IMG/VR virus record: IMGVR_UViG_3300029231_000002
Location: 7,518 to 71,517 of that record
Strand: one strand, 5' to 3'
Origin: a virus
Length of the DNA stretch: 64,000 nt
The translations under genes and the position numbers were made by a program. The first letter of the stretch is position 1. Each line of letters starts with the position of its first letter. The notes under the pieces were generated by a model. The model was not told where the DNA came from. It made no database searches and saw only the letters and a list, made by a program, of their open reading frames with translations. Below are positions 5,288 to 60,363 of this stretch, in pieces.

Positions 5288-5313
5288 TATACCACCTCGT
5301 TATATTTATTGGT

Positions 5314-5353
5314 AAGACTAGTATACCATATATTAGTACGATATACTAGTCTT
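5314..5353 (-). promoter_or_regulatory. 12-bp perfect inverted repeat (AAGACTAGTATA / TATACTAGTCTT) overlapping an extended -10 (TGGTATACT on minus strand): candidate operator/promoter for 4805..5287
   Basis: Read directly from the sequence. Position about 30 nt upstream of the RBS. Confidence 0.35.
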
Positions 5354-5380
5354 AAAATGAATTTTATTTGTTCGTAGTTA

Positions 5381-5923
5381 TTAGTTGTCTTCTTCTATTG
5401 AGGTTATTGTCCGATCAATATACTCCAATAATTTTTCTTTTTCAATTGTAGGCGGAGCCTTTTCCACCCCGCTTAAAAGATCTGCTTTCCAAGCTTTTAA
5501 AATATATTCTTTCCCGCCAAACATTATATCATCTACTTTACTTGACCAAGCATCTATAGCATCCAGTAGAAGTTGATGTGAGAAAAATCTGGGTGTTTTC
5601 TTCATCACTGTCCCTGCACCAAAACCACAGGTGCAGCATTTTATTCCACCAAATACTCCAGGAGCTGCATCACCTTCAAAACTCATTATGAAGTGAAATT
5701 TTGTACCATCACATACAGGACATTCAGTAATCCAAGTATCCTGAATTACATGAGAACAACTTGAATGTGTTTGTACCTCTCCTAAAACAGCCTGTATAGC
5801 TGCTTTATTTTTAGTTGCTTTGATATAACGAGTAAAGTCTCTAATTAGTTTCCATTCCTCTGCAGTAGCTATAACTTTTCTTTCGCTGCCTTCTGTGGTT
5901 TTTATAGTTTTTGTGTTTGTCAT
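5381..5923 (-). CDS. hypothetical Cys-rich protein
   Basis: 180 aa. CPVCDG...CCTCG suggests metal binding. Confidence 0.5.
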   Translation of the reverse strand: MTNTKTIKTTEGSERKVIATAEEWKLIRDFTRYIKATKNKAAIQAVLGEVQTHSSCSHVIQDTWITECPVCDGTKFHFIMSFEGDAAPGVFGGIKCCTCGFGAGTVMKKTPRFFSHQLLLDAIDAWSSKVDDIMFGGKEYILKAWKADLLSGVEKAPPTIEKEKLLEYIDRTITSIEEDN

Positions 5924-7442: not shown

Positions 7443-7872
7443 GCTCTTTTAATTCTCTTTTAATAATTTCTATATCTTTGCCATACACATTAGTAACAAC
7501 TGTTGCTTGAGGTAAGCCACCATGCATAACATAATATATATCCGCTAAATAGTTATTTGGTGGTTTAATTGACGCTAAGTAAAACGCAGCCTGGGCATAG
7601 CATACCTGCATATACTTACTATTCCAACTAGGCATATAAAGAATATCACCTTTAAATATACGGTTATCTTTTGTATCCAAATAACCAGTACATTGCCCTA
7701 CAGTTTCAATATCTACTTCTTTTGCAACCATTTCTGAATAATCATCACCTATCCAGTTTGAGTATTCAACAATAAAGGCTTCCTCTTCCTGGATTACCAA
7801 GTATCCATATACCCACCTTCTATTATGAATATCCTGTCCTCTATATAGGAAGTTATTTAAGTTGATATTCAT
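7408..7872 (-). CDS. hypothetical protein
   Basis: 154-aa ORF. Confidence 0.5.
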   Translation of the reverse strand: MNINLNNFLYRGQDIHNRRWVYGYLVIQEEEAFIVEYSNWIGDDYSEMVAKEVDIETVGQCTGYLDTKDNRIFKGDILYMPSWNSKYMQVCYAQAAFYLASIKPPNNYLADIYYVMHGGLPQATVVTNVYGKDIEIIKRELKEHEKGIDKNENN

Positions 7873-27094: not shown

Positions 27095-27118
27095 TATAAA
27101 TTCCTCCTTTTGTAGTAA

Positions 27119-28555
27119 TTATAGCATACCTAGTCGCATTAAGTCAATTGGTCCAAAATTGTATAAATTGTTTTTTTGTATTCCATACTGATTATCCATC
27201 CTATGTTCCCCTATAGTAACATATCTTGTGTAAGCCTCATGATAATAATACCATGCAAACTTTGATACAACAAAGGTATGCAAAGCTGAAATATCAATAT
27301 AATTTACTTCTTTCTTAATAAAATAGTTATGCAAAGCTTCTGCAGCCTCAATTATTTTATCCAGTATTTTTAGGTCCTCACTTTTATCAGTTCCTGTTAT
27401 AACCATATTATTATGGTTATATAGTTTTCTAAACTCCTCCATGATTTTACTAAACCCTTGATCATTCCCAATTGATATCCCTGAAAAGAAAAGACGAATA
27501 AAGTTTTCATGCAGGGTAAATGGTAATGATTCTACCAATTCGGTATCATGGTCGCCCAAATACGATAATGCAGTATAGTTTCCGTTAATAAAACTGATAC
27601 AACCTCGCACTCCTGTAGTTTCACTATGCAGTATTTCAAAAAGCGTATCATAAAATACCTCTAAAAACACAGCAAAATCTGCATTAGTTGCATACGTTTC
27701 TTTGCTTTTTATTTTCATTAATTCAATCCAATTTTTAAAACATTTTAAACATAGATTTTCATAAATACAAACACTAATTAGGCCCTCTATAATACAATAA
27801 ATAGCTACATTCATACCTGGGGGTTTATTGTCCGCAGTTATTCCTCTACTTAAATCATTTAGCAGCATTTGACATCCATCGGCATCTAATATTGCATTAT
27901 AGACAGAACTTCCATCTCTAGCAGTATGATTAAAGTTATAGGCAGAATAATCTCGATTATATAGGTATTCCAAATTTAGTGTATATACTTTTAAATCTGG
28001 GCGATCACAAAAAATTATTTCACGAAGCGCTGGCTGTAAAAATATGGTATCTCCATTATCCCTTTCTATTACTATATTTTCTGTTTTCAATGCTTCTATA
28101 ACTTCAGTTATTCCCAAAGGCAAGTATACACCAGCGTCGTCAAGTAACTCACCTAATTCCAGTATTTTGTTATTAAGTCCTACCAGTTCAGATTTATTGA
28201 GCGAGGCATCTAATATATCAAAAATCTCAGGTAACGAAAGATCCTTATTTAAAAATTCTTGGATACGGTGCTGAAGCATATCAACCCGGTCAAATATTAA
28301 AGTATCTTCCTCTAGGTTAAAATACTTGCACAGATTCTTAGATGTAATATTTTTGGGTATACCATCGAGTTTGAATCCCCAATAAAATGGTAATACACCT
28401 GTTATATTTATTGTTTCTGGAATTATCTTTAAGCTTAAACGATCAACTATAGTCGAGCTATCTACTCTTCTTTCAGTTATAAATGCTGAACTCAGTGTCC
28501 TAGTCTCTACAGGTGATGCTACTTTATGTTCCCATTTTTGACCTTTATAACTCAT
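27119..28555 (-). CDS. hypothetical large protein
   Basis: 478 aa. No recognisable motif. Confidence 0.55.
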   Translation of the reverse strand: MSYKGQKWEHKVASPVETRTLSSAFITERRVDSSTIVDRLSLKIIPETINITGVLPFYWGFKLDGIPKNITSKNLCKYFNLEEDTLIFDRVDMLQHRIQEFLNKDLSLPEIFDILDASLNKSELVGLNNKILELGELLDDAGVYLPLGITEVIEALKTENIVIERDNGDTIFLQPALREIIFCDRPDLKVYTLNLEYLYNRDYSAYNFNHTARDGSSVYNAILDADGCQMLLNDLSRGITADNKPPGMNVAIYCIIEGLISVCIYENLCLKCFKNWIELMKIKSKETYATNADFAVFLEVFYDTLFEILHSETTGVRGCISFINGNYTALSYLGDHDTELVESLPFTLHENFIRLFFSGISIGNDQGFSKIMEEFRKLYNHNNMVITGTDKSEDLKILDKIIEAAEALHNYFIKKEVNYIDISALHTFVVSKFAWYYYHEAYTRYVTIGEHRMDNQYGIQKNNLYNFGPIDLMRLGML

Positions 28556-30080
28556 ATATAATCGGCTTCCCTTCCCAGCCTTTTAGAGAAGAAAACCCAT
28601 CTGAATTATCTTCCCATGACTGCAATATTTTTAAATAGTACGCTGGAATCTTTTGTAATGCCATTTTTTCTGCTACCTCTCCTATTTTATTAAATATCTG
28701 TAATATATCTTCATTACCACTTACTAAATCGTTTTCAATGGCCCATTTCTGAAATCCTTGACACGCAAGTCCTAAACATAAATATTCTGATCTAATCCCA
28801 GTTATTAACAATGTAAGCCATGATCCCAAGTCAGCATCGGAACAGCCATACATCAAATAGTCTTTAAACGCGTATTCCGGGAAACCATAAGGTCCATTAA
28901 TAAAATCCCTGTCTAGCGAATACTTATCAAAAGACAACATATATGCTTTAAAAGCTTTTTCTAATGGTATTTCTGCAAGTTTCTTTGATTTTTCTTTCAT
29001 CATCAAAAGAGATGCCGGAATATTTGCATGTACTGCTTCAATATTTAACTTGAAAAGATTTTGATAACACGGCATATCTTTACCATATAACTGTTCTGAA
29101 GAAAATAAATGCCGTGTATTTATATCTCTATATTCTGAGGTATAACGTTTTTCTACAATTGCAGTATAATAATACACATGTACACTTTTTCGACAATCAC
29201 CTTCTATATACCCATATAACCTTAAAGTGTTAGCATTATATCCACGAGATTGGTTCCATATAGGAACATCTATTGAATACCCACCACTTAAAACACCAGT
29301 CTCAACGCAGTTCAGAGTCCTGAGTAGTCTAATTAAATATGGCTGCCCCAAACACCTCGGAGTACCCATCTCAAAACTATCACTCCCCTCATCCACACTT
29401 CCTAGTGATATACCTGTAGCATTTGTTAAAAATCCCTGTTGTTTTCCTGCTACCCGACTTATTTTTCCTAAAATCTTCCATAAATAGCGAATAACAGGGG
29501 TATAATGGTTAAGTACTCGCGGCTGATTAGCTCCTAACCGAAGTGCAGTTATTTTGCCTGGCCAATAAGGTTGGTGCTCTTCCCGCCGTATAGTTAATCT
29601 TAAATCGTTAAGTTCATCCAGATTTGTTTGGTTAATAAACTCATATCGAGTACCTTTAGTCTTTGAAAACCAAAAATTACCCCAATATCTATATCCACGT
29701 GTACCCATAGACTCCCATCTCATACACATTGTAAACATGTCCCGCATAATACGTGTCATATTTGAATTCCGTTCCGCATCACGCTGAAATAACTCCGGTG
29801 CAATACCAGCTACACATCTGGCAGGAGTAAGCCGGGCTTCAAAAAACTGTTTTACACCCATATACTCTACCCAATCATCAGGCAACGTACCCCAGTAATC
29901 CATAAGTTCAACCTTCCGCTTTTCCCTGCGCGAAATTAATCTGGAGTAGATGTTCGCTTTTAATCCCAATTGAGTCATTGCATATGCAAAAGTATTATAA
30001 ATCAACGTAAGCTCACGGGCTACCATTTCTATATCTTTAGTTTCTACTGCAGAACTAGAATATAAGAGTCTCCCCTGCAT
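28545..30080 (-). CDS. hypothetical large protein
   Basis: 511 aa. No recognisable motif. Confidence 0.55.
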   Translation of the reverse strand: MQGRLLYSSSAVETKDIEMVARELTLIYNTFAYAMTQLGLKANIYSRLISRREKRKVELMDYWGTLPDDWVEYMGVKQFFEARLTPARCVAGIAPELFQRDAERNSNMTRIMRDMFTMCMRWESMGTRGYRYWGNFWFSKTKGTRYEFINQTNLDELNDLRLTIRREEHQPYWPGKITALRLGANQPRVLNHYTPVIRYLWKILGKISRVAGKQQGFLTNATGISLGSVDEGSDSFEMGTPRCLGQPYLIRLLRTLNCVETGVLSGGYSIDVPIWNQSRGYNANTLRLYGYIEGDCRKSVHVYYYTAIVEKRYTSEYRDINTRHLFSSEQLYGKDMPCYQNLFKLNIEAVHANIPASLLMMKEKSKKLAEIPLEKAFKAYMLSFDKYSLDRDFINGPYGFPEYAFKDYLMYGCSDADLGSWLTLLITGIRSEYLCLGLACQGFQKWAIENDLVSGNEDILQIFNKIGEVAEKMALQKIPAYYLKILQSWEDNSDGFSSLKGWEGKPIIYEL

Positions 30081-30870
30081 TATATAGTTCCTCCTTTATT
30101 TTATTTCGCTCTATATGAGAATAACATCGTAATTTTAACCTGAAACGATCAATATAATTCCGATTGAAAACTCCTCCTTTTTCATCATGTAATATTACTT
30201 GCGGTAATCCCAGAGGCCTATGCAAATAGGTTGCAAAGTTAAAATTTCCCTGTACTAAATTTAATATATCCCCTATTACACGTTCCCCTATTTCCAACAT
30301 TAAACTCAGAGATTTTAATTGTACCTGAAAAGAAATTGGATACGCATCAAAATCCGTAGAAATAACATTTCTTTCAGCCCCAAATATATGAGTTAAACTA
30401 CTCATAGCATCAAGGAATTCAGAAATTACCACTCTATCTTTGCGGGTAAGAGCTAGTCTGTGGGTAATCATATCTGTATATTTTCTCGTCTTTTTCAATT
30501 GCTTGATTAATATTTTATATAGTTCAATCCTATATTCCATGGATATATTATTTAAAAGCCTTAATATACTTCTAAAACCGTAAATTAACCTCTCTCTATA
30601 ATAACTCCCGGAATAAATCCCGGATAGCTTAATCGTAGTAAGAGATTCGTAACTGCGTAGCGTATTTTTATAAATATTATCTAAAATTCTGTGTAAACTT
30701 TTAATAATAAGTTTCAAATCTATAGCCGAATAAATAATATGGTCATAGCTATTTAACCTTGAACTAATCTTATTACCGAATAGCTCATCTCTGTTATACA
30801 CTATATAATCGCCAAGATGACGAAATTCATCTAGTTCAAATTGAATATATCTGATCATGCGTTGTACCAC
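30055..30870 (-). CDS. hypothetical protein
   Basis: 271-aa ORF. Confidence 0.55.
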   Translation of the reverse strand: MVQRMIRYIQFELDEFRHLGDYIVYNRDELFGNKISSRLNSYDHIIYSAIDLKLIIKSLHRILDNIYKNTLRSYESLTTIKLSGIYSGSYYRERLIYGFRSILRLLNNISMEYRIELYKILIKQLKKTRKYTDMITHRLALTRKDRVVISEFLDAMSSLTHIFGAERNVISTDFDAYPISFQVQLKSLSLMLEIGERVIGDILNLVQGNFNFATYLHRPLGLPQVILHDEKGGVFNRNYIDRFRLKLRCYSHIERNKIKEELYNAGETLIF

Positions 30871-30874
30871 TCCT

Positions 30875-32533
30875 TTATATAATATAATTTAAATGACTGG
30901 ACCATTCTGTGCCATATTTCATATCCCATTTTGTTATGCCCTCAATGTACTCAGATAAAAACGACCAGTTACCCAGCCATTCTGGTTTATCATTGGGCAA
31001 CATATACTGTTTCTGAATCCCCTCTTTGTACCAGGGATCATTAGCTAAGGGATTAAATGTGTCATCACTCCATAAGAATGGAATACTATTTACTTTCGGC
31101 ATTTTTTTATGTATTACTCGTACCTGATCTTCTCTTACTAATGAAATGGAAGTCATCTGGTAGCCAGCGTCTGGGTTATAGTATTCAGACATTGTATTAT
31201 CATTACTTAAATTTACAACATGACCATATCTGCAGGTCAAGTTTGGACCTCTGTTTCTGAATGCATCAAATGTAAACGAAGGAATCATAGGGAAAACAAG
31301 GTTGTACAAAGGTTTCCTGTGTGTAAAACTATTATACAATTCGTGTATTAACCAATTTAAAATAGCGACAAAATCTCCAGGCGACGCATACTCCTGTTGT
31401 ACCATACTCTTATCTTTATATAGAGGCTTTAGTACACGATAATACAGGTTTGCATAGATACCCTCAGCAAAACTACATAAAGAGTTTAAAACATTGAGAT
31501 CTTCATTTAACATTTTCCGTAAATCGTGAGACCACATTGGACCTGGGATAATCGGATTATCAAATAGATAAGGGACATCCTTGTTACCACGATGATTCTT
31601 CGCATATACAACATTTTGTCCTATTTTAATAGAATTCGCTAAATCTAACCATTTGTAGTATAAACATTCCTCCAGTACTTTTACATTGTCAGGACAACGT
31701 GAGTCATTGAGTTCTTTAAGAATATTAGTAACATATAAACGAGATAATAAAAGCATTCCATATAAACCTTTAATTTTTCTCATTAAATTCTCTCTAGGAT
31801 AGGGAACTGCATCTGTGAAAACATTGTGCGAAATCACATAAAATATTTCAGTGTAATGATTGTTTAAAATCCATGATCCAGAATCAACCATATAAGATGT
31901 TGATTCCATCGTCCTTTCATCCATTCCTAAAATAGTATTTATTACATCTAAAAGGTTAGTATTGCATATAAGCAGATATCCAGGAGCATAGGGTATACTA
32001 TATTTTCTAGATTTTAATTCCTCTATGATATTAGTTGACCAATCATTATGAGTATCATAGGGTGTAATACTTAACAGAGTTTCCTTAAAATCGATATCCT
32101 TAAAATTAGAAATTGGTAAATCTGCTTCCCTAACCACATACATTATATTACTTTTAAGAATCATTGGTGTCGCTAGAATATAAAATAAATAATACATGTA
32201 AGATAGTTCATCTGGAAAATAACAGGGAATAGATAATCGACTCCCCCAAGAAAAATTCATTTTATTCTCATTGCGTTTAAAAAGTTTTTCCAGTACATCC
32301 CTATATCGGGGTCTACCATTTCTGATATATATAAAATCAGAACCCTTACCAAAATATAAACGTATAAACGTGGAAGCAAAACTGTTATTATTATGCCTAT
32401 AATCCCACTGTTGATTTAATAACCGTAATATTTTTTCGCTCTCATTCATAAATACATCTCCTTTTCTGTTAAAATATAGGCAGTTATACAAATGTCTACT
32501 ACCATTATACTTATACCAGCCACTGAAATTCAT
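30875..32533 (-). CDS. hypothetical large protein, first gene leftward of the origin-like region
   Basis: 552-aa ORF. Confidence 0.55.
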   Translation of the reverse strand: MNFSGWYKYNGSRHLYNCLYFNRKGDVFMNESEKILRLLNQQWDYRHNNNSFASTFIRLYFGKGSDFIYIRNGRPRYRDVLEKLFKRNENKMNFSWGSRLSIPCYFPDELSYMYYLFYILATPMILKSNIMYVVREADLPISNFKDIDFKETLLSITPYDTHNDWSTNIIEELKSRKYSIPYAPGYLLICNTNLLDVINTILGMDERTMESTSYMVDSGSWILNNHYTEIFYVISHNVFTDAVPYPRENLMRKIKGLYGMLLLSRLYVTNILKELNDSRCPDNVKVLEECLYYKWLDLANSIKIGQNVVYAKNHRGNKDVPYLFDNPIIPGPMWSHDLRKMLNEDLNVLNSLCSFAEGIYANLYYRVLKPLYKDKSMVQQEYASPGDFVAILNWLIHELYNSFTHRKPLYNLVFPMIPSFTFDAFRNRGPNLTCRYGHVVNLSNDNTMSEYYNPDAGYQMTSISLVREDQVRVIHKKMPKVNSIPFLWSDDTFNPLANDPWYKEGIQKQYMLPNDKPEWLGNWSFLSEYIEGITKWDMKYGTEWSSHLNYII

Positions 32534-32561
32534 TTTTTCCCGACGCCATCGACATAAACAT

Positions 32562-33103
32562 AAAGTGTAGACACTTTTATGTCGATAAACTAGCAGAATT
32601 AGAATGTCTGTCTACACTGTCTACAAATCATCTTTAAAAAGTGTAGACACTTTTTTGCTTATAATATAATATAAATTATATGATTGTCTACATGTCTACA
32701 CTTTTTTTAAGGTAGAGACACATGACGCGAGATTTTTTACATGTAAATAGTGTATACTATATATAAATAGTGTATACTAAATGAAAAATAAAAAATGAAG
32801 ATATATATAAGGGGGTCTACCCTGAAAAAAGTGTAGACATGTAGACAACGTGACATTTCATAGCACCGCGTCCTCAAAAAAGTGTCTACACTTTTTCAAA
32901 AAAATTTGTAGACAGGTGTAGACAACTTTGTGAACTATTTGTGAACTTTCTAGGTTTAATGCTGCCCGGAGGGGTGTAAAAACCTGGGAGCAAAGTGTAA
33001 CCACCGATGGCATCGACAGAATTAGAAACCTCCCGAGTTTTCTGTTTTTAGACACAATTATTTTGCACTGTTTTCTCGGCGAAAAAGTGTCTACACTTTT
33101 TGA
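32562..33103. repeat. iteron cluster: at least 9 copies of AAAGTGTAGACAC in both orientations plus tandem half-sites (TGTCTACA with 9-10 bp spacing), an AT-rich segment and a 16-bp direct repeat AAATAGTGTATACTAA x2
   Basis: Motifs and positions read directly from the sequence. Confidence 0.6.
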
Positions 33104-33302
33104 AAGTATTGTGTACTCAGCGTTTTGCGAAGGGAGGCATTGTAAAACGTCGATAAACGTGGATATTTAAGAGATATGGACATTTTAAGAATCTAGTGGA
33201 CACTTGTGGTTAAAAAGTTAACACTTTTATGTAAACTGAATTAAAGATTGTAATGTTTACAACTTCACAATTATTTTACATTTATATTTATCAACAACAC
33301 AT

Positions 33303-33715
33303 GTGGATAACTGTGTCCTATAGCATAAAGCAATGGGTCTCGTTGTTTTTACTTGCTACTCCGAGTGTAACATTTAATAAAAGTGTAACATTTGTTACAT
33401 TGTTAACCTGTGGATAACTCATTTTCAAGGTTTACACTTTTTATCATTTTTTATCAAAACAAATGTCCACAGGTTCAAAATATAACAAATATGTCGATGA
33501 CATGCTGTGAATGATGTGTAAACCTGTTTCTATTTTACCCTGTGGATAAGCTGTGGATAAGCTGTGGATAACTTTTAAAAATCTGTGGATAAGTACATTT
33601 GTTTTTCACTGTCTAAAGATTATTCCCAAAAATATCCACAAGTTATCCACATATTTATCCACAGGGAACAGTGAGTCACCATGCGGTCTAAGACCACTTA
33701 TCCACATTATCCACA
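33303..33715. promoter_or_regulatory. cluster of 11 perfect DnaA boxes (TTATCCACA/TGTGGATAA) plus near-matches: candidate DnaA-dependent origin or DnaA-titrating element
   Basis: Boxes at about 33303, 33409, 33541, 33553, 33565, 33584 (TGTGGATAA) and 33643, 33655, 33698, 33707 (TTATCCACA), with a near-match at 33632. Four are in tandem at 12-bp spacing. Confidence 0.6.
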
Positions 33716-33825
33716 GCCCCTACTACTACTGCTTTTAAAAGATTATATATTTTCCTAGTAATAGAAAACCTTACACACGTGCGTAGGTTCCAAAAACAAA
33801 AAACTTTTTGATTTCGCAATTTAGG

Positions 33826-33855
33826 TTGACTTGGTTTAGGTTCGTATGATATACT
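33826..33855 (+). promoter_or_regulatory. sigma-A-type promoter for the rightward tail operon (-35 TTGACT, 18-nt spacer, -10 TATACT)
   Basis: Read directly. 60 nt upstream of the first plus-strand gene. Confidence 0.45.
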
Positions 33856-33914
33856 TTAGGTACAGCTTCTGGAACTCCCCTTAACACCTGGCTGTTTTAT
33901 CCAAAACTTTAAAT

Positions 33915-34151
33915 ATGAAAGGCGGTAAGATCATGACAACCGAACAAATCACAAACATTGTACCAGACATTATCACAGTATATGGGCTCACAAAAGTCCA
34001 CAAAGATCTCGTTGAAAGCATTACTGATGAAGGTACTACGCTTTTGCTGACCATTAAGTTTAACGATGCCTTGATGAAAATCCGTATCCTGAAAGATAAT
34101 CCCAATATTGGTGTACGGGTTGACGACCATACTGACGAGGTGACTCTGTAA
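33915..34151 (+). CDS. hypothetical protein
   Basis: 78 aa. First gene of the rightward block. Confidence 0.5.
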   Translation: MKGGKIMTTEQITNIVPDIITVYGLTKVHKDLVESITDEGTTLLLTIKFNDALMKIRILKDNPNIGVRVDDHTDEVTL

Positions 34152-46930: not shown

Positions 46931-47289
46931 TAGTTGTTAAGGAAAGCTTCAATATCGATATCCTGCAGGGTAAGCAGTGATCCTTTGGGAACCGGGTGCA
47001 GCTTGTGGTTCTCAGGTATATTACTCAGTACAGATATCATCGCAGGTCCATATACTTCAGAATTCAGGGTATCGTAGATTTGATCTAGTATATCCGAGTA
47101 CGAATCGCCACCTGCCAGTAATGATACCTCAAAGATATAAGCTATATATTTCGACGATGGCAGAGTAGTTAGTCCAGGAAGGGTATCTACATTGAAATTC
47201 TCAGTACGGGAAATGTATATTGGTACTTTCATGTTAATTACCTGTAGAACCAAACCCGCCTTGACGGATTGCTTTTCTGGGAATATCAA
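46930..47289 (-). CDS. hypothetical protein
   Basis: 119-aa ORF. Confidence 0.45.
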   Translation of the reverse strand: MIFPEKQSVKAGLVLQVINMKVPIYISRTENFNVDTLPGLTTLPSSKYIAYIFEVSLLAGGDSYSDILDQIYDTLNSEVYGPAMISVLSNIPENHKLHPVPKGSLLTLQDIDIEAFLNN

Positions 47290-47923
47290 GTGCTACAGTT
47301 AAGTACTTTTGAAAAATACCCTGAACAATTCGTTCACCTTTTTTAAGTTCTACAGGTTCGATACCCGGATATAACTGAACCATAACACCAATCTCCCCAC
47401 CGTTATCTTCATTGTCTGCATAGTCTGAATCAATGACTCCTGTACCGTTCAGGAGATACATTTTTTTACTCAGAGAGGACCTGATATACAGTGCAAGCCA
47501 TTCATCTGCTTGCATATAAGCTTTAACACCAAGTCCTATGAATACCGGTTCATCACTTGTAACTGTTACGTCCTTCGGCAGGAAAAAGTCGTAACCTGCA
47601 GAGCATGCAGTGCCGCGGGTAGGAAGTTGAATATAATCAGGCTGGGGGTACCATACAGAATCAAAGGTTCTGCTGGATTTAGCCATGGATTTAATGTCCT
47701 GGCTATGGTCCCCAATTCTAAGACCATGCTTATCTATGAAAGCACGCAGAGATGTATATTCTGCTTCACCGTAACATTGTTCTGCCATACTAAGAGTTAT
47801 GGGATTAATAAAAATATCCTTACTATAGCTTTTACTTACGTTCTCAAATTCAAGAGAACAAAATTCTTTAAACTCTTCAAGAGTAGGAAATGAACTGATT
47901 GCTTGCATTGCGTATACCTCCAA
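47234..47923 (-). CDS. dut: dUTP diphosphatase with about 80-aa N-terminal extension
   Basis: All five dUTPase motifs are present: AGYDF, RSSL, GVIDSDY, RIVQ, RQGGFGSTG. Confidence 0.85.
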   Translation of the reverse strand: MEVYAMQAISSFPTLEEFKEFCSLEFENVSKSYSKDIFINPITLSMAEQCYGEAEYTSLRAFIDKHGLRIGDHSQDIKSMAKSSRTFDSVWYPQPDYIQLPTRGTACSAGYDFFLPKDVTVTSDEPVFIGLGVKAYMQADEWLALYIRSSLSKKMYLLNGTGVIDSDYADNEDNGGEIGVMVQLYPGIEPVELKKGERIVQGIFQKYLTVALDIPRKAIRQGGFGSTGN

Positions 47924-50543: not shown

Positions 50544-51308
50544 ATGGTTAGACCTAAGTTAGTCGGGTTCCAAGAGGGTAAAGTTGGCCTTAAGGCATCT
50601 AATCAATATTCTGATTCCGATTTGGAACTTTGGCGTAAATATAAACAAGGTAATATTCAAGCTAAATGGGATTTATTGAAAAAATTCCATGGTGTCATTG
50701 TAAGCAATGCCAGAAAGCTTAGCAATGTACGGCCGTACTCTGTTGTAGAAGCAGAGCTTAAAGAACTTACGTTGAAAGCCTTTGATACTTATAATCCTGC
50801 AATGGGAGCCAAGTTATCAACGCATGTAATCAATACTTACAAAAAAGTAAGCCGTGAAAATATCAGTAATCAACATGCCATCCGTATTCCGGAAAATGTA
50901 CACTTTAAGTTTCGACCTATCACTGAGGCTACGGAATACCTGTCGGAGGCTCTTAATAGAGAGCCAACTCACCAGGAGATAGCAGAGTTTACTGGGTGGT
51001 CAGTGCCGAAAGTTATTGACGCTACTACCAGGCTTCGTCGTGAACTGGTAGAGAGTAAACAGACGTTTGATCCAGGGATACATGAAACTGATCCTACTGA
51101 ACAAGCGTTATACTATGCTTACCATGTGCTTGATAATCCTGGTAAATATATACTTGAGCATACAACTGGTTATGGCGGCAAAGTAGAATTGCCTGACTCC
51201 AAAATCAGGACTTACTTAAAACTTACACCACATATGTATAATAAAAAGAAAAACGAAGTTATCGGAGTTGTACGAGAAGCTCTTAATACAGCGTCCGAAG
51301 GCTTCTAA
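50544..51308 (+). CDS. sigma-70-family RNA polymerase sigma factor
   Basis: KLSTHVINTYKKVSRENISNQHAIRIPENVHFKF...EALNREPTHQEIAEF aligns with SigA region 2.4-3 (KFSTYATWWIRQAI...IRIPVHMVE...LGREPTPEEIAE). Confidence 0.7.
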   Translation: MVRPKLVGFQEGKVGLKASNQYSDSDLELWRKYKQGNIQAKWDLLKKFHGVIVSNARKLSNVRPYSVVEAELKELTLKAFDTYNPAMGAKLSTHVINTYKKVSRENISNQHAIRIPENVHFKFRPITEATEYLSEALNREPTHQEIAEFTGWSVPKVIDATTRLRRELVESKQTFDPGIHETDPTEQALYYAYHVLDNPGKYILEHTTGYGGKVELPDSKIRTYLKLTPHMYNKKKNEVIGVVREALNTASEGF

Positions 51309-58905: not shown

Positions 58906-60363
58906 TTAGAACCCCTCCCTTTTAAATATGTCGATCATATCCTCTACAGTTTTTTGGCGATGCTTATCCATGATAGTTTTTAACTTTAGGGTTTTATCTG
59001 GATCTACTATACTGAGAAATGCCAGCTTGCCATTAAACACCCGTTTACTCAAGGGTTTCACCATTAAATTTCTAAATGATGATTTAAAGAATTTATTGTG
59101 AGCCGCATACTTTTTAACTAACGCGATTCTAGCAGGATGTATATTATACATTACTTCTCGTATACCAAGCTGTTTTCCAATCAGCATCGCTTCAACTCGC
59201 AGGTCATTATATTTACTCCGTGGATACTTTACTTCCGAGTTAGATATATGTAATCCCAATACAGTTTTCACCGATTGTACATATTTATACATTGGTTTAA
59301 CTATAAATTCTAAATTTGGATATTTCGTATGAACCAGGTCAGTGATACGTGTTAATGTTTCTGGCAATTCATCCAATGGAATTTTGGTATCCTTAGAGAA
59401 CGTGAACTCAATGACTTTGGCAGATATTGTTCCACGTAAGTCTGGCATCTGTAAATAGTTTGTTATAATCCCGATAATTTTAGCAGACTGAGTAGATGGC
59501 AGATATGTAACTTTTGTTTTTATACGGAAGCCAGTTACAATAGGATAAGCTTTATCACGCATAATTCCAACTTTCTTATAATTCATCCGAAATGGATGTA
59601 CTACCTCACTAAGTTCGCTGATAAAGTCCTGACATTCTGCATCACTTTTGTTACCTGAAAAGCATAAATCATCTGCATATCGAGTATATGTAAACCCAAA
59701 CTTTTCTGCTAGTTCCGCTACTCTGCAATCAAAATCATAATTAAGGATTATAGTAAGAATTGGAGAAGTAGGAGCTCCCTGCGGTAGTACCCCATCTAAA
59801 CAAACAAGTTTAACGATTCTACTCAGAACATCCAGGGGTAAATTTGTATTAAAATTTTTTGCAATTAAATGCTCAAGCCCTTTTTGTACATATAAGGATG
59901 TGTGAGCTGGGAAAAAGTCTTTTAAATCTACATGTACAAGTACCCCGTCATTAGCAACTGTTTTAGCTGCATCTACAATGTTTTTACCTTGCATAAATGC
60001 GTAATTACACGGATGTTTAGGAAACTGATTAAAGAATTCCATTAGCTTTAATTGTAGTTCCTTTAAAGCTTCGGTAGGGGCATTGATTTCTCTAAGTTTA
60101 ATACCAAAAGAATAGGGAACGATTTTCTTAGTATTCTTATCGATATAAAACCTGGAATAACAGGCTTTTGCAGTAACGTCTGTTATAGACGTTAGTATTT
60201 CAGGAGTTACTCCCATATAACTTGAAAAAGAATTATAATCAATAAAGGGCAATTCGGATAATGTAAGTACTCGATTGCCACAGATACTTTCTAATTGACT
60301 ATGCCGCCCAGTTAAAGTATTATAATACTCACGTACAAGCTTTGGAAACCTGTTAATATCCAT
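58906..60363 (-). CDS. reverse transcriptase, retron-like (group II/retron/Abi clade) with about 150-aa C-terminal extension
   Basis: RT motifs VHVDLKDFFP (A), LPQGAPTSPILTIILN (B'), FTYTRYADDLCFSG (C), and PIVTGFRI (VTG triplet characteristic of retron RTs). QGxxxSP argues against a DGR-type RT. Confidence 0.85.
   Translation of the reverse strand: MDINRFPKLVREYYNTLTGRHSQLESICGNRVLTLSELPFIDYNSFSSYMGVTPEILTSITDVTAKACYSRFYIDKNTKKIVPYSFGIKLREINAPTEALKELQLKLMEFFNQFPKHPCNYAFMQGKNIVDAAKTVANDGVLVHVDLKDFFPAHTSLYVQKGLEHLIAKNFNTNLPLDVLSRIVKLVCLDGVLPQGAPTSPILTIILNYDFDCRVAELAEKFGFTYTRYADDLCFSGNKSDAECQDFISELSEVVHPFRMNYKKVGIMRDKAYPIVTGFRIKTKVTYLPSTQSAKIIGIITNYLQMPDLRGTISAKVIEFTFSKDTKIPLDELPETLTRITDLVHTKYPNLEFIVKPMYKYVQSVKTVLGLHISNSEVKYPRSKYNDLRVEAMLIGKQLGIREVMYNIHPARIALVKKYAAHNKFFKSSFRNLMVKPLSKRVFNGKLAFLSIVDPDKTLKLKTIMDKHRQKTVEDMIDIFKREGF

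Follow-up and report, generated by a model that had tools for sequence, protein, structure and literature searches.

The DNA analysed here, hereafter the window, is a stretch of 64,000 nucleotides from a virus (IMG/VR record IMGVR_UViG_3300029231_000002, positions 7,518 to 71,517), and coordinates refer to it unless stated otherwise. It is part of a large, previously undescribed phage of about 159 kb that is common in human gut metagenomes. Between a leftward and a rightward block of genes, the window holds a divergent non-coding region with two elements, a cluster of DnaA boxes that runs into a module resembling a bacterial oriC and a dyad-symmetric array of TGTAGACA sites. An earlier note on this DNA had described such a divergent gap and had taken it for an origin of the iteron type that also recruits host DnaA. 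The gap is confirmed (about 1.47 kb, 32450–33914 after correction of a gene start), and the origin is supported in outline: to judge from its sequence, the region is very probably a replication origin engaging host DnaA. The DnaA part, however, appears to be a complete oriC module and not an accessory. The region and its DnaA-related features are as follows (L numbers are our handles for sequence loci).

32450–33914, no strand: whole divergent non-coding region from the list of open reading frames, about 1.47 kb, bounded by the left gene start at 32449 and the rightward gene at 33915
33302–33417, minus strand: two distal perfect DnaA boxes (33302–33310 and 33409–33417), kept in L234, L238 and L239
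33541–33592, minus strand: four perfect reverse boxes starting at 33541, 33552, 33563 and 33584, spaced 11, 11 and 21 bp
33632–33663, plus strand: three forward boxes, ATATCCACA at 33632 (one mismatch) and TTATCCACA at 33643 and 33655, at offsets -75, -64 and -52 from the proximal box
33698–33715, plus strand: origin-proximal tandem pair of abutting perfect boxes (TTATCCACA TTATCCACA), on the same strand as the 5'-CTA repeats
33716–33719, plus strand: spacer GCCC, GC-rich, linking the proximal box to the trios (CCCC in L234)
33720–33737, plus strand: DnaA-trios, top strand CTA CTA CTA CTG CTT TTA, bottom strand 3'-GAT GAT GAT GAC GAA AAT-5', three of consensus sequence followed by three NAN
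33734–33773, no strand: AT-rich candidate DNA-unwinding element directly 3' of the trios, the third least stable 40-mer of the region and at the 99.5th percentile of instability in the window

The perfect DnaA box TTATCCACA occurs ten times in the 64-kb window, and every copy falls within the 414 bp from 33302 to 33715; chance would give 0.79 copies, and none of 100 shuffled sequences reached ten. This density (10 in 414 bp) is at the top of the range in viral contigs. The dense cluster reported earlier is real, with ten perfect boxes instead of the eleven or more then counted, since the eleventh (ATATCCACA at 33632) has one mismatch. A phasing of four boxes at 12 bp had also been given; the actual spacing of the reverse boxes is 11, 11 and 21 bp, which is helical phasing. 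Measured from the proximal box, the full set of offsets is -166, -155, -144 and -123 for the reverse boxes and -75, -64, -52, -9 and 0 for the forward ones.

Bacterial origins contain a module, termed BUS, that is defined as a DnaA box, usually a tandem pair, followed by a spacer, DnaA-trios and the unwinding region (PMC8287927, PMC7561715, PMC6669920). The box has at most two mismatches and is oriented toward the trios (PMC8287927, PMC6669920), the spacer measures 0–16 bp and is as a rule GC-rich and about 4 bp long (PMC8287927, PMC7561715), and the trios comprise at least three consecutive 3'-NAN-5' triplets with the consensus 3'-GAT-5' (PMC8287927). Distal boxes support the proximal module in bacterial oriC (PMC6669920). 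All of the published sequence features of a BUS are present at 33698–33740, where a box pair, a spacer, trios and AT-rich DNA follow one another, and eight more perfect boxes and the one-mismatch box lie upstream. The earlier note had missed this unwinding module at the end of the cluster, as well as the second copy of the TGTAGACA element described below. Judged by its sequence, 33698–33773 is a complete chromosomal-type oriC module on its own and not an accessory box cluster.

We scanned an exact 22-mer spanning the module, TTATCCACAGCCCCTACTACTA, against 185,579 bacterial and archaeal genomes. It is present in 81 bacterial genomes of many phyla and is followed by AT-rich DNA in every case; the chance expectation in about 596 Gb, both strands included, is below 0.1 by our own estimate, which is not the output of a tool. 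Of the 81 loci, 65 have a correctly oriented dnaA upstream of the 22-mer, a correctly oriented dnaN downstream of it, or both, and Pfam searches placed DnaA and the beta clamp on either side of TTATCCACAGCCCCTACTACTA in all four loci tested (Staphylococcus simulans, a Lachnospiraceae isolate, Halanaerobacter and Romboutsia). The annotated dnaA-dnaN region of Priestia megaterium has the same arrangement. The phage module is oriented as in these dnaA→BUS→dnaN loci, and a 31-mer composed of the box pair, GCCC and CTACTACTA is common to the origins of Clostridium sp. ASF356, Romboutsia, Robinsoniella and Halanaerobacter.

The likeness extends to the upstream boxes. In Halanaerobacter they stand at offsets -176, -164, -153, -132, -120, -75, -64, -9 and 0, and other Clostridia are similar. 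The 11/11/21 pattern of reverse boxes recurs about 10 bp farther upstream in the origins of Halanaerobacter and of a Bacillota metagenome-assembled genome, and the forward offsets -75, -64 and -52 recur in both of these, in Clostridium sp. ASF356 and in the viral contigs L230, L216, L225 and L220. On this comparison of sequences, the box layout of the phage is superimposable on that of Firmicutes dnaA-dnaN origins.

Searches with tblastn found no homolog of DnaA or DnaN in the window, nor in any of the viral loci retrieved. A chromosomal oriC locus adjoins dnaA and/or dnaN, whereas the module is flanked by phage genes; since neither dnaA nor dnaN is there, it is not itself a chromosomal oriC locus, although it is predicted to work like oriC. 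Recent capture of a host oriC, or a passenger fragment of one, was rejected because the closest nucleotide similarity to the 81 origins is only about 72% over about 210 bp and no remnants of dnaA or dnaN are present. Bacterial contamination was rejected as well, since the viral loci lack DnaA and DnaN and the module is retained in relatives. A similar module on plasmids was also looked for, and the only match proved to be a Priestia chromosome origin filed as a plasmid. This record, PLSDB NZ_CP140268.1 (1-6273, L240), is a 410-kb Priestia megaterium 'plasmid' that opens with dnaA-dnaN-yaaA-recF-gyrB and is probably a mis-assigned chromosome segment.

The module is kept in relatives L234 and L238, in intergenic DNA that is 89% identical. 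Over 32450–33914 the identity to L234 is 89%, while the flanking left gene reaches only 63% at the protein level. Substitutions relative to L234 affect 1 of 99 box positions and 132 of 1245 positions in the remaining intergenic DNA (Fisher p = 6e-4), a difference that suggests purifying selection on the boxes. Both relatives have the spacer CCCC and the trios CTA CTA CTA TTA CTA TTA; trios 4–6 have thus changed, yet their middle base and the trio periodicity are retained. The AT-rich element 33734–33773 is almost invariant in L234.

The module also coincides with the switch in gene orientation and with the cumulative GC-skew minimum of the window. Coding-strand GC skew averages 0.179 for genes co-oriented with forks leaving 33.7 kb (n = 58) and 0.009 for head-on genes (n = 12; p = 2e-4), and third-position skew has the same pattern. 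We regard this as weak support for an origin.

The left part of the region is occupied by the second element, whose features are given below.

32609–32926, no strand: dyad-symmetric TGTAGACA element, copy A, about 320 bp, made of inverted repeat pairs; left-arm sites at 32609-, 32618-, 32642+, 32685- and 32693-, right-arm sites at 32832+, 32840+, 32883-, 32907+ and 32917+
32717–32815, no strand: AT-rich dyad centre, 99 bp, with a 2 x 20-bp direct repeat at 32738–32777
32562–32578, plus strand: outlying AAAGTGTAGACACTTTT near-palindrome, with other copies at 32638+, 32879- and 33084-
33084–33100, minus strand: a further outlying AAAGTGTAGACACTTTT near-palindrome, right of the dyad element and left of the DnaA boxes
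32926–32948, plus strand: direct repeat TTTGTGAACT, two copies beside the right arm, invariant in L234; its reverse complement also lies beside copy B

The GTGTAGACAC iterons of the earlier note are real repeats, found four times (32565+, 32641+, 32882-, 33087-; expected 0.06), but they do not form an array of direct iterons at regular intervals. The four copies are members of a 12-site TGTAGACA family confined to 32566–33095 (expected 2.3); its sites are 8-bp cores mostly arranged as doublets 8–10 bp apart in mirror-image arms. The inverted arms 32617–32657/32875–32915 and 32684–32716/32816–32848 are 90% and 94% complementary, respectively, and copy A as a whole matches its own reverse complement at 68–70%. 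An AT-rich segment with direct repeats had likewise been noted; it corresponds to the dyad centre, in which lies the 40-mer of lowest stability in the region (99.99th percentile of the window). Relative to L234, the TGTAGACA sites have none of 96 positions substituted (p = 5e-5), and even in L236, the most divergent relative, whose left gene is 39% identical, sites are still present upstream of that gene.

A second copy of the element, copy B, is found in L009 at 5292–5923 (contig IMGVR_UViG_3300045988_167780, ~143,967–144,598) and also in L004 and L006. It is 84% identical to copy A overall, with nearly identical arms and a different centre, and it lies in a 1.4-kb gap between convergent genes that contains no DnaA box. 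The two copies are roughly opposite each other, 84.5 kb apart in one direction and 74.3 kb in the other on the 158.8-kb genome. The flanks of copy B share the short motifs GTTTACACTTTT, TGATAAAAATTGA and AAAGTTCACAAA with copy A, and copy B is followed by about 600 bp of non-coding DNA that is richer in GC. Contigs L001 and L235–L237 end inside the TGTAGACA element; physical genome ends were considered and rejected in favour of assembly breaks at a two-copy repeat, because one contig is 85,174 bp long, which agrees with the ~84.5 kb that separate the copies.

Since the second copy of the TGTAGACA element, at a distance of about 85 kb, has no DnaA boxes, the two modules are separable, and the single iteron-plus-DnaA-box unit previously envisaged is not supported. 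We predict from its sequence that the TGTAGACA element is a binding array for a sequence-specific protein. It may serve as a second, phage-specific origin, a regulator of the origin or of promoters, a fork barrier, or a segregation or recombination site; it may thus regulate or complement the origin, and the oriC-type module would not depend on it. A general phage promoter motif was rejected, as the element is found nowhere else in about 92 kb of phage genome and few sites have a -10 element. A site for a host factor associated with oriC was rejected too, with 20 sites found against 18.5 expected in the 81 bacterial oriC loci.

The remaining features of the region and its left border concern genes and putative promoters.

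30875–32449, minus strand: first leftward gene, 524 aa, a lineage-restricted orphan with no database match
32663–32690, minus strand: best promoter-like site for the leftward block (TAGACA, 16-nt spacer, TATATT), 10 of 12 matches, a consensus match only, overlapping TGTAGACA sites of the left arm
33826–33855, plus strand: sigma-70-type promoter-like site for the rightward tail block (TTGACT, 18-nt spacer, TATACT, with TG), 10 of 12 matches, about 110 bp past the last box

The first leftward gene probably starts at 32449 rather than at 32533, because its homologs measure 524–546 aa, whereas the upstream start would give 552 aa. It is one of four large leftward genes (27100–32500) that had been put forward as the initiator and replisome loaders. 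Nothing favours this assignment: searches of Pfam, PHROGs, NCBIfam and PDB sequences gave no match for any of the four proteins, and a profile search of 1.84 billion representatives found no relatives beyond their own phage group. Library searches found no Rep, winged-helix or other recognisable domain in the neighbouring proteins; one of them may be a novel DNA-binding protein. The AlphaFold model of the neighbouring leftward protein was unusable (predicted local distance difference test score 34). The four genes are the fastest-evolving stretch of the locus, with 62–87% nucleotide identity among relatives, compared to about 90–98% elsewhere, and the first of them shows 39–95% protein identity. 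Such divergence is the pattern expected for host-interaction or arms-race proteins.

Candidate replication genes lie farther away. An SNF2 helicase gene is located about 1.1 kb past the left end of the window, and about 9.5 kb past that end is a gene for a 1008-aa, primase-like protein whose N-terminus carries a DnaG-type zinc ribbon and a Toprim domain; the two are roughly 30–40 kb from the origin-like region. Further genes past the left end encode RuvC, an HU-like protein and a PD-(D/E)XK nuclease.

The promoter-like site at 33826–33855 is retained in L234 and L238. Across the region, 10 promoter-like matches were found compared to 8.5 expected from shuffled sequences, which is not above expectation. 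An RNA element was rejected: no Rfam family reaches its threshold in the region, the low-threshold matches being plant microRNA models that reflect the palindrome, and 32926–33050 folds no better than shuffled sequences (z = -0.78).

From ten boxes in 414 bp, the BUS features, the 22-mer identity, the shared layout and the apparent purifying selection, we infer that 33300–33775 is a host-DnaA-dependent, chromosomal-type (oriC-like) origin of this ~159-kb phage of anaerobic Firmicutes, and we assign this reading a probability of roughly 60%. The phage would probably use the host initiator DnaA to start its own replication. DnaA binding, unwinding and initiation are what the identity of the module to characterised bacterial modules would predict. 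Host DnaA-ATP would fill the 10–11 consensus boxes, and the helically phased distal arrays would raise the local DnaA concentration. DnaA at the tandem pair 33698–33715 would then nucleate a filament across GCCC onto one strand of the trios 33720–33737, and this filament would melt the adjoining AT-rich element at about 33734–33773. The replicative helicase could be loaded by the host DnaD/DnaB/DnaI pathway or by the phage primase-helicase-like protein, and forks would leave both ways, co-oriented with the two diverging gene blocks.

Several points weigh against this proposal. The phage appears to encode replication proteins of its own and may therefore initiate elsewhere, for instance in the AT-rich centre of the dyad, which is about 950 bp from the module. 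The DnaA-box clusters of T5-like phages are not considered origins, and a dense cluster of perfect boxes would titrate DnaA whether or not an origin fires. GC skew is confounded with the direction of transcription and may reflect gene class instead of replication, and the terminus-like skew switch expected at the antipodal copy-B region is not seen.

Titration is the essence of one alternative, according to which the module is an oriC mimic that, while the phage genome is being amplified, sequesters host DnaA, perhaps along with DnaD, DnaB and helicase, and thereby delays or shuts down host initiation. Ten perfect high-affinity boxes, packed as densely as in any viral contig, would suit such a decoy, box clusters on multicopy DNA do titrate DnaA (review, PMC5835720), and a phage that seems to have its own primase(-helicase) may not need DnaA. 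However, titration requires boxes only and leaves the arrangement of tandem pair, GC spacer, trios and AT-rich DNA, as well as the trio periodicity, unexplained; we consider the decoy unlikely as the main function. Sink and origin are not exclusive, and the module may titrate DnaA in addition. GC spacer, trios and the oriC-identical layout would be just as needless if the boxes and TGTAGACA sites served as operators that tune tail-gene and leftward-gene expression to DnaA-ATP and a phage regulator. DnaA is a known transcription factor, a strong sigma-70-like promoter (33826–33855) follows the last box by about 110 bp, and promoter-like sites overlap TGTAGACA sites. Such matches are, however, no more numerous than in shuffled sequences, and transcriptional control appears improbable as the explanation. 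An even more remote proposal follows the hypothesis for the injection-stop region of T5, in which boxes among inverted repeats bind membrane-associated DnaA and so anchor the DNA or pause its entry. T5-like phages do have a large non-coding region in which about eight DnaA boxes are interspersed with inverted repeats, but the T5 model is itself untested, no terminal-repeat location is evident for the region analysed here, its oriC layout with trios differs from the T5 pairs 3 bp apart, and the phage has no similarity to known phages. We hold this explanation to be very improbable indeed.

The other alternative that involves an origin places initiation at the dyad. A phage initiator would bind the TGTAGACA sites and melt the dyad centre 32717–32815, with the DnaA boxes as accessories, in the manner of P1 oriR, F, RK2 and pSC101. 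In its favour, the dyad centre is the least stable DNA in the region, and the 12 sites are free of substitutions and persist in L236. Nevertheless, the sites are 8-bp cores in inverted doublets and not regularly spaced 17–22-bp direct iterons, no recognisable Rep-like gene lies next door, a second copy of the element stands between convergent genes at a distance of about 85 kb and has no DnaA boxes, and the DnaA module is complete on its own; an iteron-type origin is therefore rather doubtful in our view. An extension of the host-DnaA origin, equally tentative, would see the phage replicate, in at least one phase of its life, as a DnaA-licensed 'minichromosome' that is gated by host growth state and cell cycle and competes with the host origin for DnaA. 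The TGTAGACA dyads would then be phage-specific poles, acting as fork barriers or terminus, or as segregation or recombination sites, and the phage and contigs such as L230 would make up a class of phages whose origins are of the chromosomal type.

With respect to the phage itself, the window is 97% identical to a 158,838-bp IMG/VR contig, and relatives of 145–165 kb are present in many assemblies, human gut metagenomes among them. In the collection, 220 blocks are indexed for one protein of the window, and 137 of them hold contigs of 50–200 kb. DNA and protein searches found no similar genome among 50,697 deposited phage records, in which the sole matches are 32–37 nt long and pair a box trio with microviruses. 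The right half of the window encodes tail-type proteins, the terminase large subunit, a sigma-like factor, a reverse transcriptase and a dUTPase (47234–47923). The left half is devoted to nucleotide metabolism and includes ThyX, a split anaerobic ribonucleotide reductase (NrdD), a radical-SAM activase-like protein, a NUDIX protein and others. Because of the anaerobic reductase and the box layout, the sequence points to an anaerobic Firmicutes host.

Some of these genes have features of their own. NrdD is split within 10112–13877 (minus strand) into an N-terminal part with an ATP-cone (13188–13877) and a C-terminal part (10112–11263). The about 1.9 kb between the parts contain a 228-aa open reading frame (11401–12087), which suggests an intron, intein or homing-endonuclease insertion. 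The reverse transcriptase (RVT_1; 58906–60363, minus strand) is flanked by two unknown genes near the terminase gene. A diversity-generating retroelement is not obvious around it, as a search of 44–64 kb of the window revealed no direct repeats of the template/variable type that are 45 nt or longer. Two distant sigma-70-family proteins are encoded, one SigF/G-like (50544–51308, plus strand) and one in L243 (13122–14156), which implies promoter switching directed by the phage. The leftward gene block also contains an open reading frame with a weak IS110-family transposase domain (16066–16920, minus strand), which has no relatives among PLSDB plasmids.

Phages that recruit host DnaA had been called uncommon. 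This calls for qualification: the full unwinding module is very rare in IMG/VR, but phased triple boxes are present in more than 119 IMG/VR contigs (L010–L127 among the loci), many of them microvirus-sized and none with dnaA or dnaN. Box triplets phased at 11 bp are found in many contigs of 4–8 kb and also in deposited gut Microviridae, for example INPHARED MZ089785.1 (3781–3812) and PQ006258.1 (3796–3832), and in Microvirus mar39 triple boxes lie in the intergenic gap just past the replication initiator gene. The microvirus triplets may serve DnaA-dependent priming or regulation.

Within IMG/VR, the exact 22-mer TTATCCACAGCCCCTACTACTA is found only in this phage's own contig. A degenerate pattern (box, 3–5 nt, CTACTACTA) gives 26 loci, about half a dozen of which have several boxes. 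Among them is L230 (IMGVR_UViG_3300001544_000024), a phage-like contig of 29.8 kb that encodes a DnaB-like helicase, a DnaD/O-like protein and methyltransferases. At about 12450–12860 it carries seven perfect DnaA boxes ending in a tandem pair, ACCC, four CTA repeats and AT-rich DNA, and it shares the -64, -52, -9, 0 layout with the phage. L230 would be a second phage with an oriC-type module. L216, L225 and L220, putative phage contigs, have a like layout. Of what may be a small class of viral contigs with such a module, the phage is the clearest example.

Phage origins are usually defined by phage-encoded initiators, and DnaA is normally accessory only, as in lambda and P1. If our proposal is correct, a virus could take over the initiator-origin logic of its host wholesale, and its replication would be coupled to the host DnaA-ATP cycle and would probably compete with the host origin. 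The element, which is short and matches the consensus perfectly, can be tested directly in existing in-vitro BUS assays, and the phage is widespread in human gut metagenomes. The search logic of box pair, spacer and trios already finds a few more viral contigs and could be used to map DnaA-dependent origins in uncultivated phages.

To place the region among known systems, we compared it with several classes of DnaA-box arrays. Iteron-plus-DnaA-box origins (P1 oriR, F oriS, RK2 oriV and pSC101) likewise combine repeated sites, an AT-rich segment and DnaA boxes. In iteron plasmids, Rep from an adjacent gene binds regularly spaced direct iterons and melts the DNA, and there are few accessory boxes and no trios. 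The phage has inverted doublets in place of regular direct 17–22-bp repeats, no recognisable Rep-like neighbour and modules that can be separated.

Dense high-affinity boxes away from the host origin are also a property of datA and of the DnaA-box clusters of B. subtilis. Whereas datA has two consensus boxes, four one-misfit boxes and an IHF site but no unwinding module (PMC5835720), the phage has ten perfect boxes as well as trios and an AT-rich element. T5-like phages, too, have a large conserved non-coding region with many inverted repeats, and the about eight DnaA boxes of their injection-stop region were judged unrelated to replication (bioRxiv 10.1101/866236). Those boxes are pairs 3 bp apart inside the inverted repeats of the terminal repeat, many are non-consensus and there are no trios (bioRxiv 10.1101/866236). 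In contrast, the boxes described here are 2 bp apart (11-bp phasing) or abutting, they lie outside the TGTAGACA inverted repeats, and the region is internal in contigs of 145–165 kb.

Full-text literature searches, of incomplete coverage and hence giving absence of evidence only, turned up no description of a consensus BUS-type oriC in a natural phage. For phage G, an Ori-Finder-type prediction lists boxes and a trio, without comparable evidence (PMC12484599). Lambda-asn transducing phages that carry E. coli oriC are able to replicate as minichromosomes through DnaA (PMC5835720); these are recent laboratory captures of host DNA together with flanking genes, whereas the module described here is conserved, gene-free and part of a natural lineage.

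The closest counterparts are the Firmicutes origins (B. subtilis incC, C. difficile oriC2 and the BUS), which have the same tandem boxes, 4-bp GC spacer, 3'-GAT-5' trios, AT-rich element and phased upstream boxes. A stretch of 22–31 nt in the phage is identical to many bacterial oriCs. The phage module differs from them in its position between orphan and tail genes, in the absence of dnaA, dnaN and a second box cluster upstream of a dnaA gene, and in the presence of the TGTAGACA dyad.

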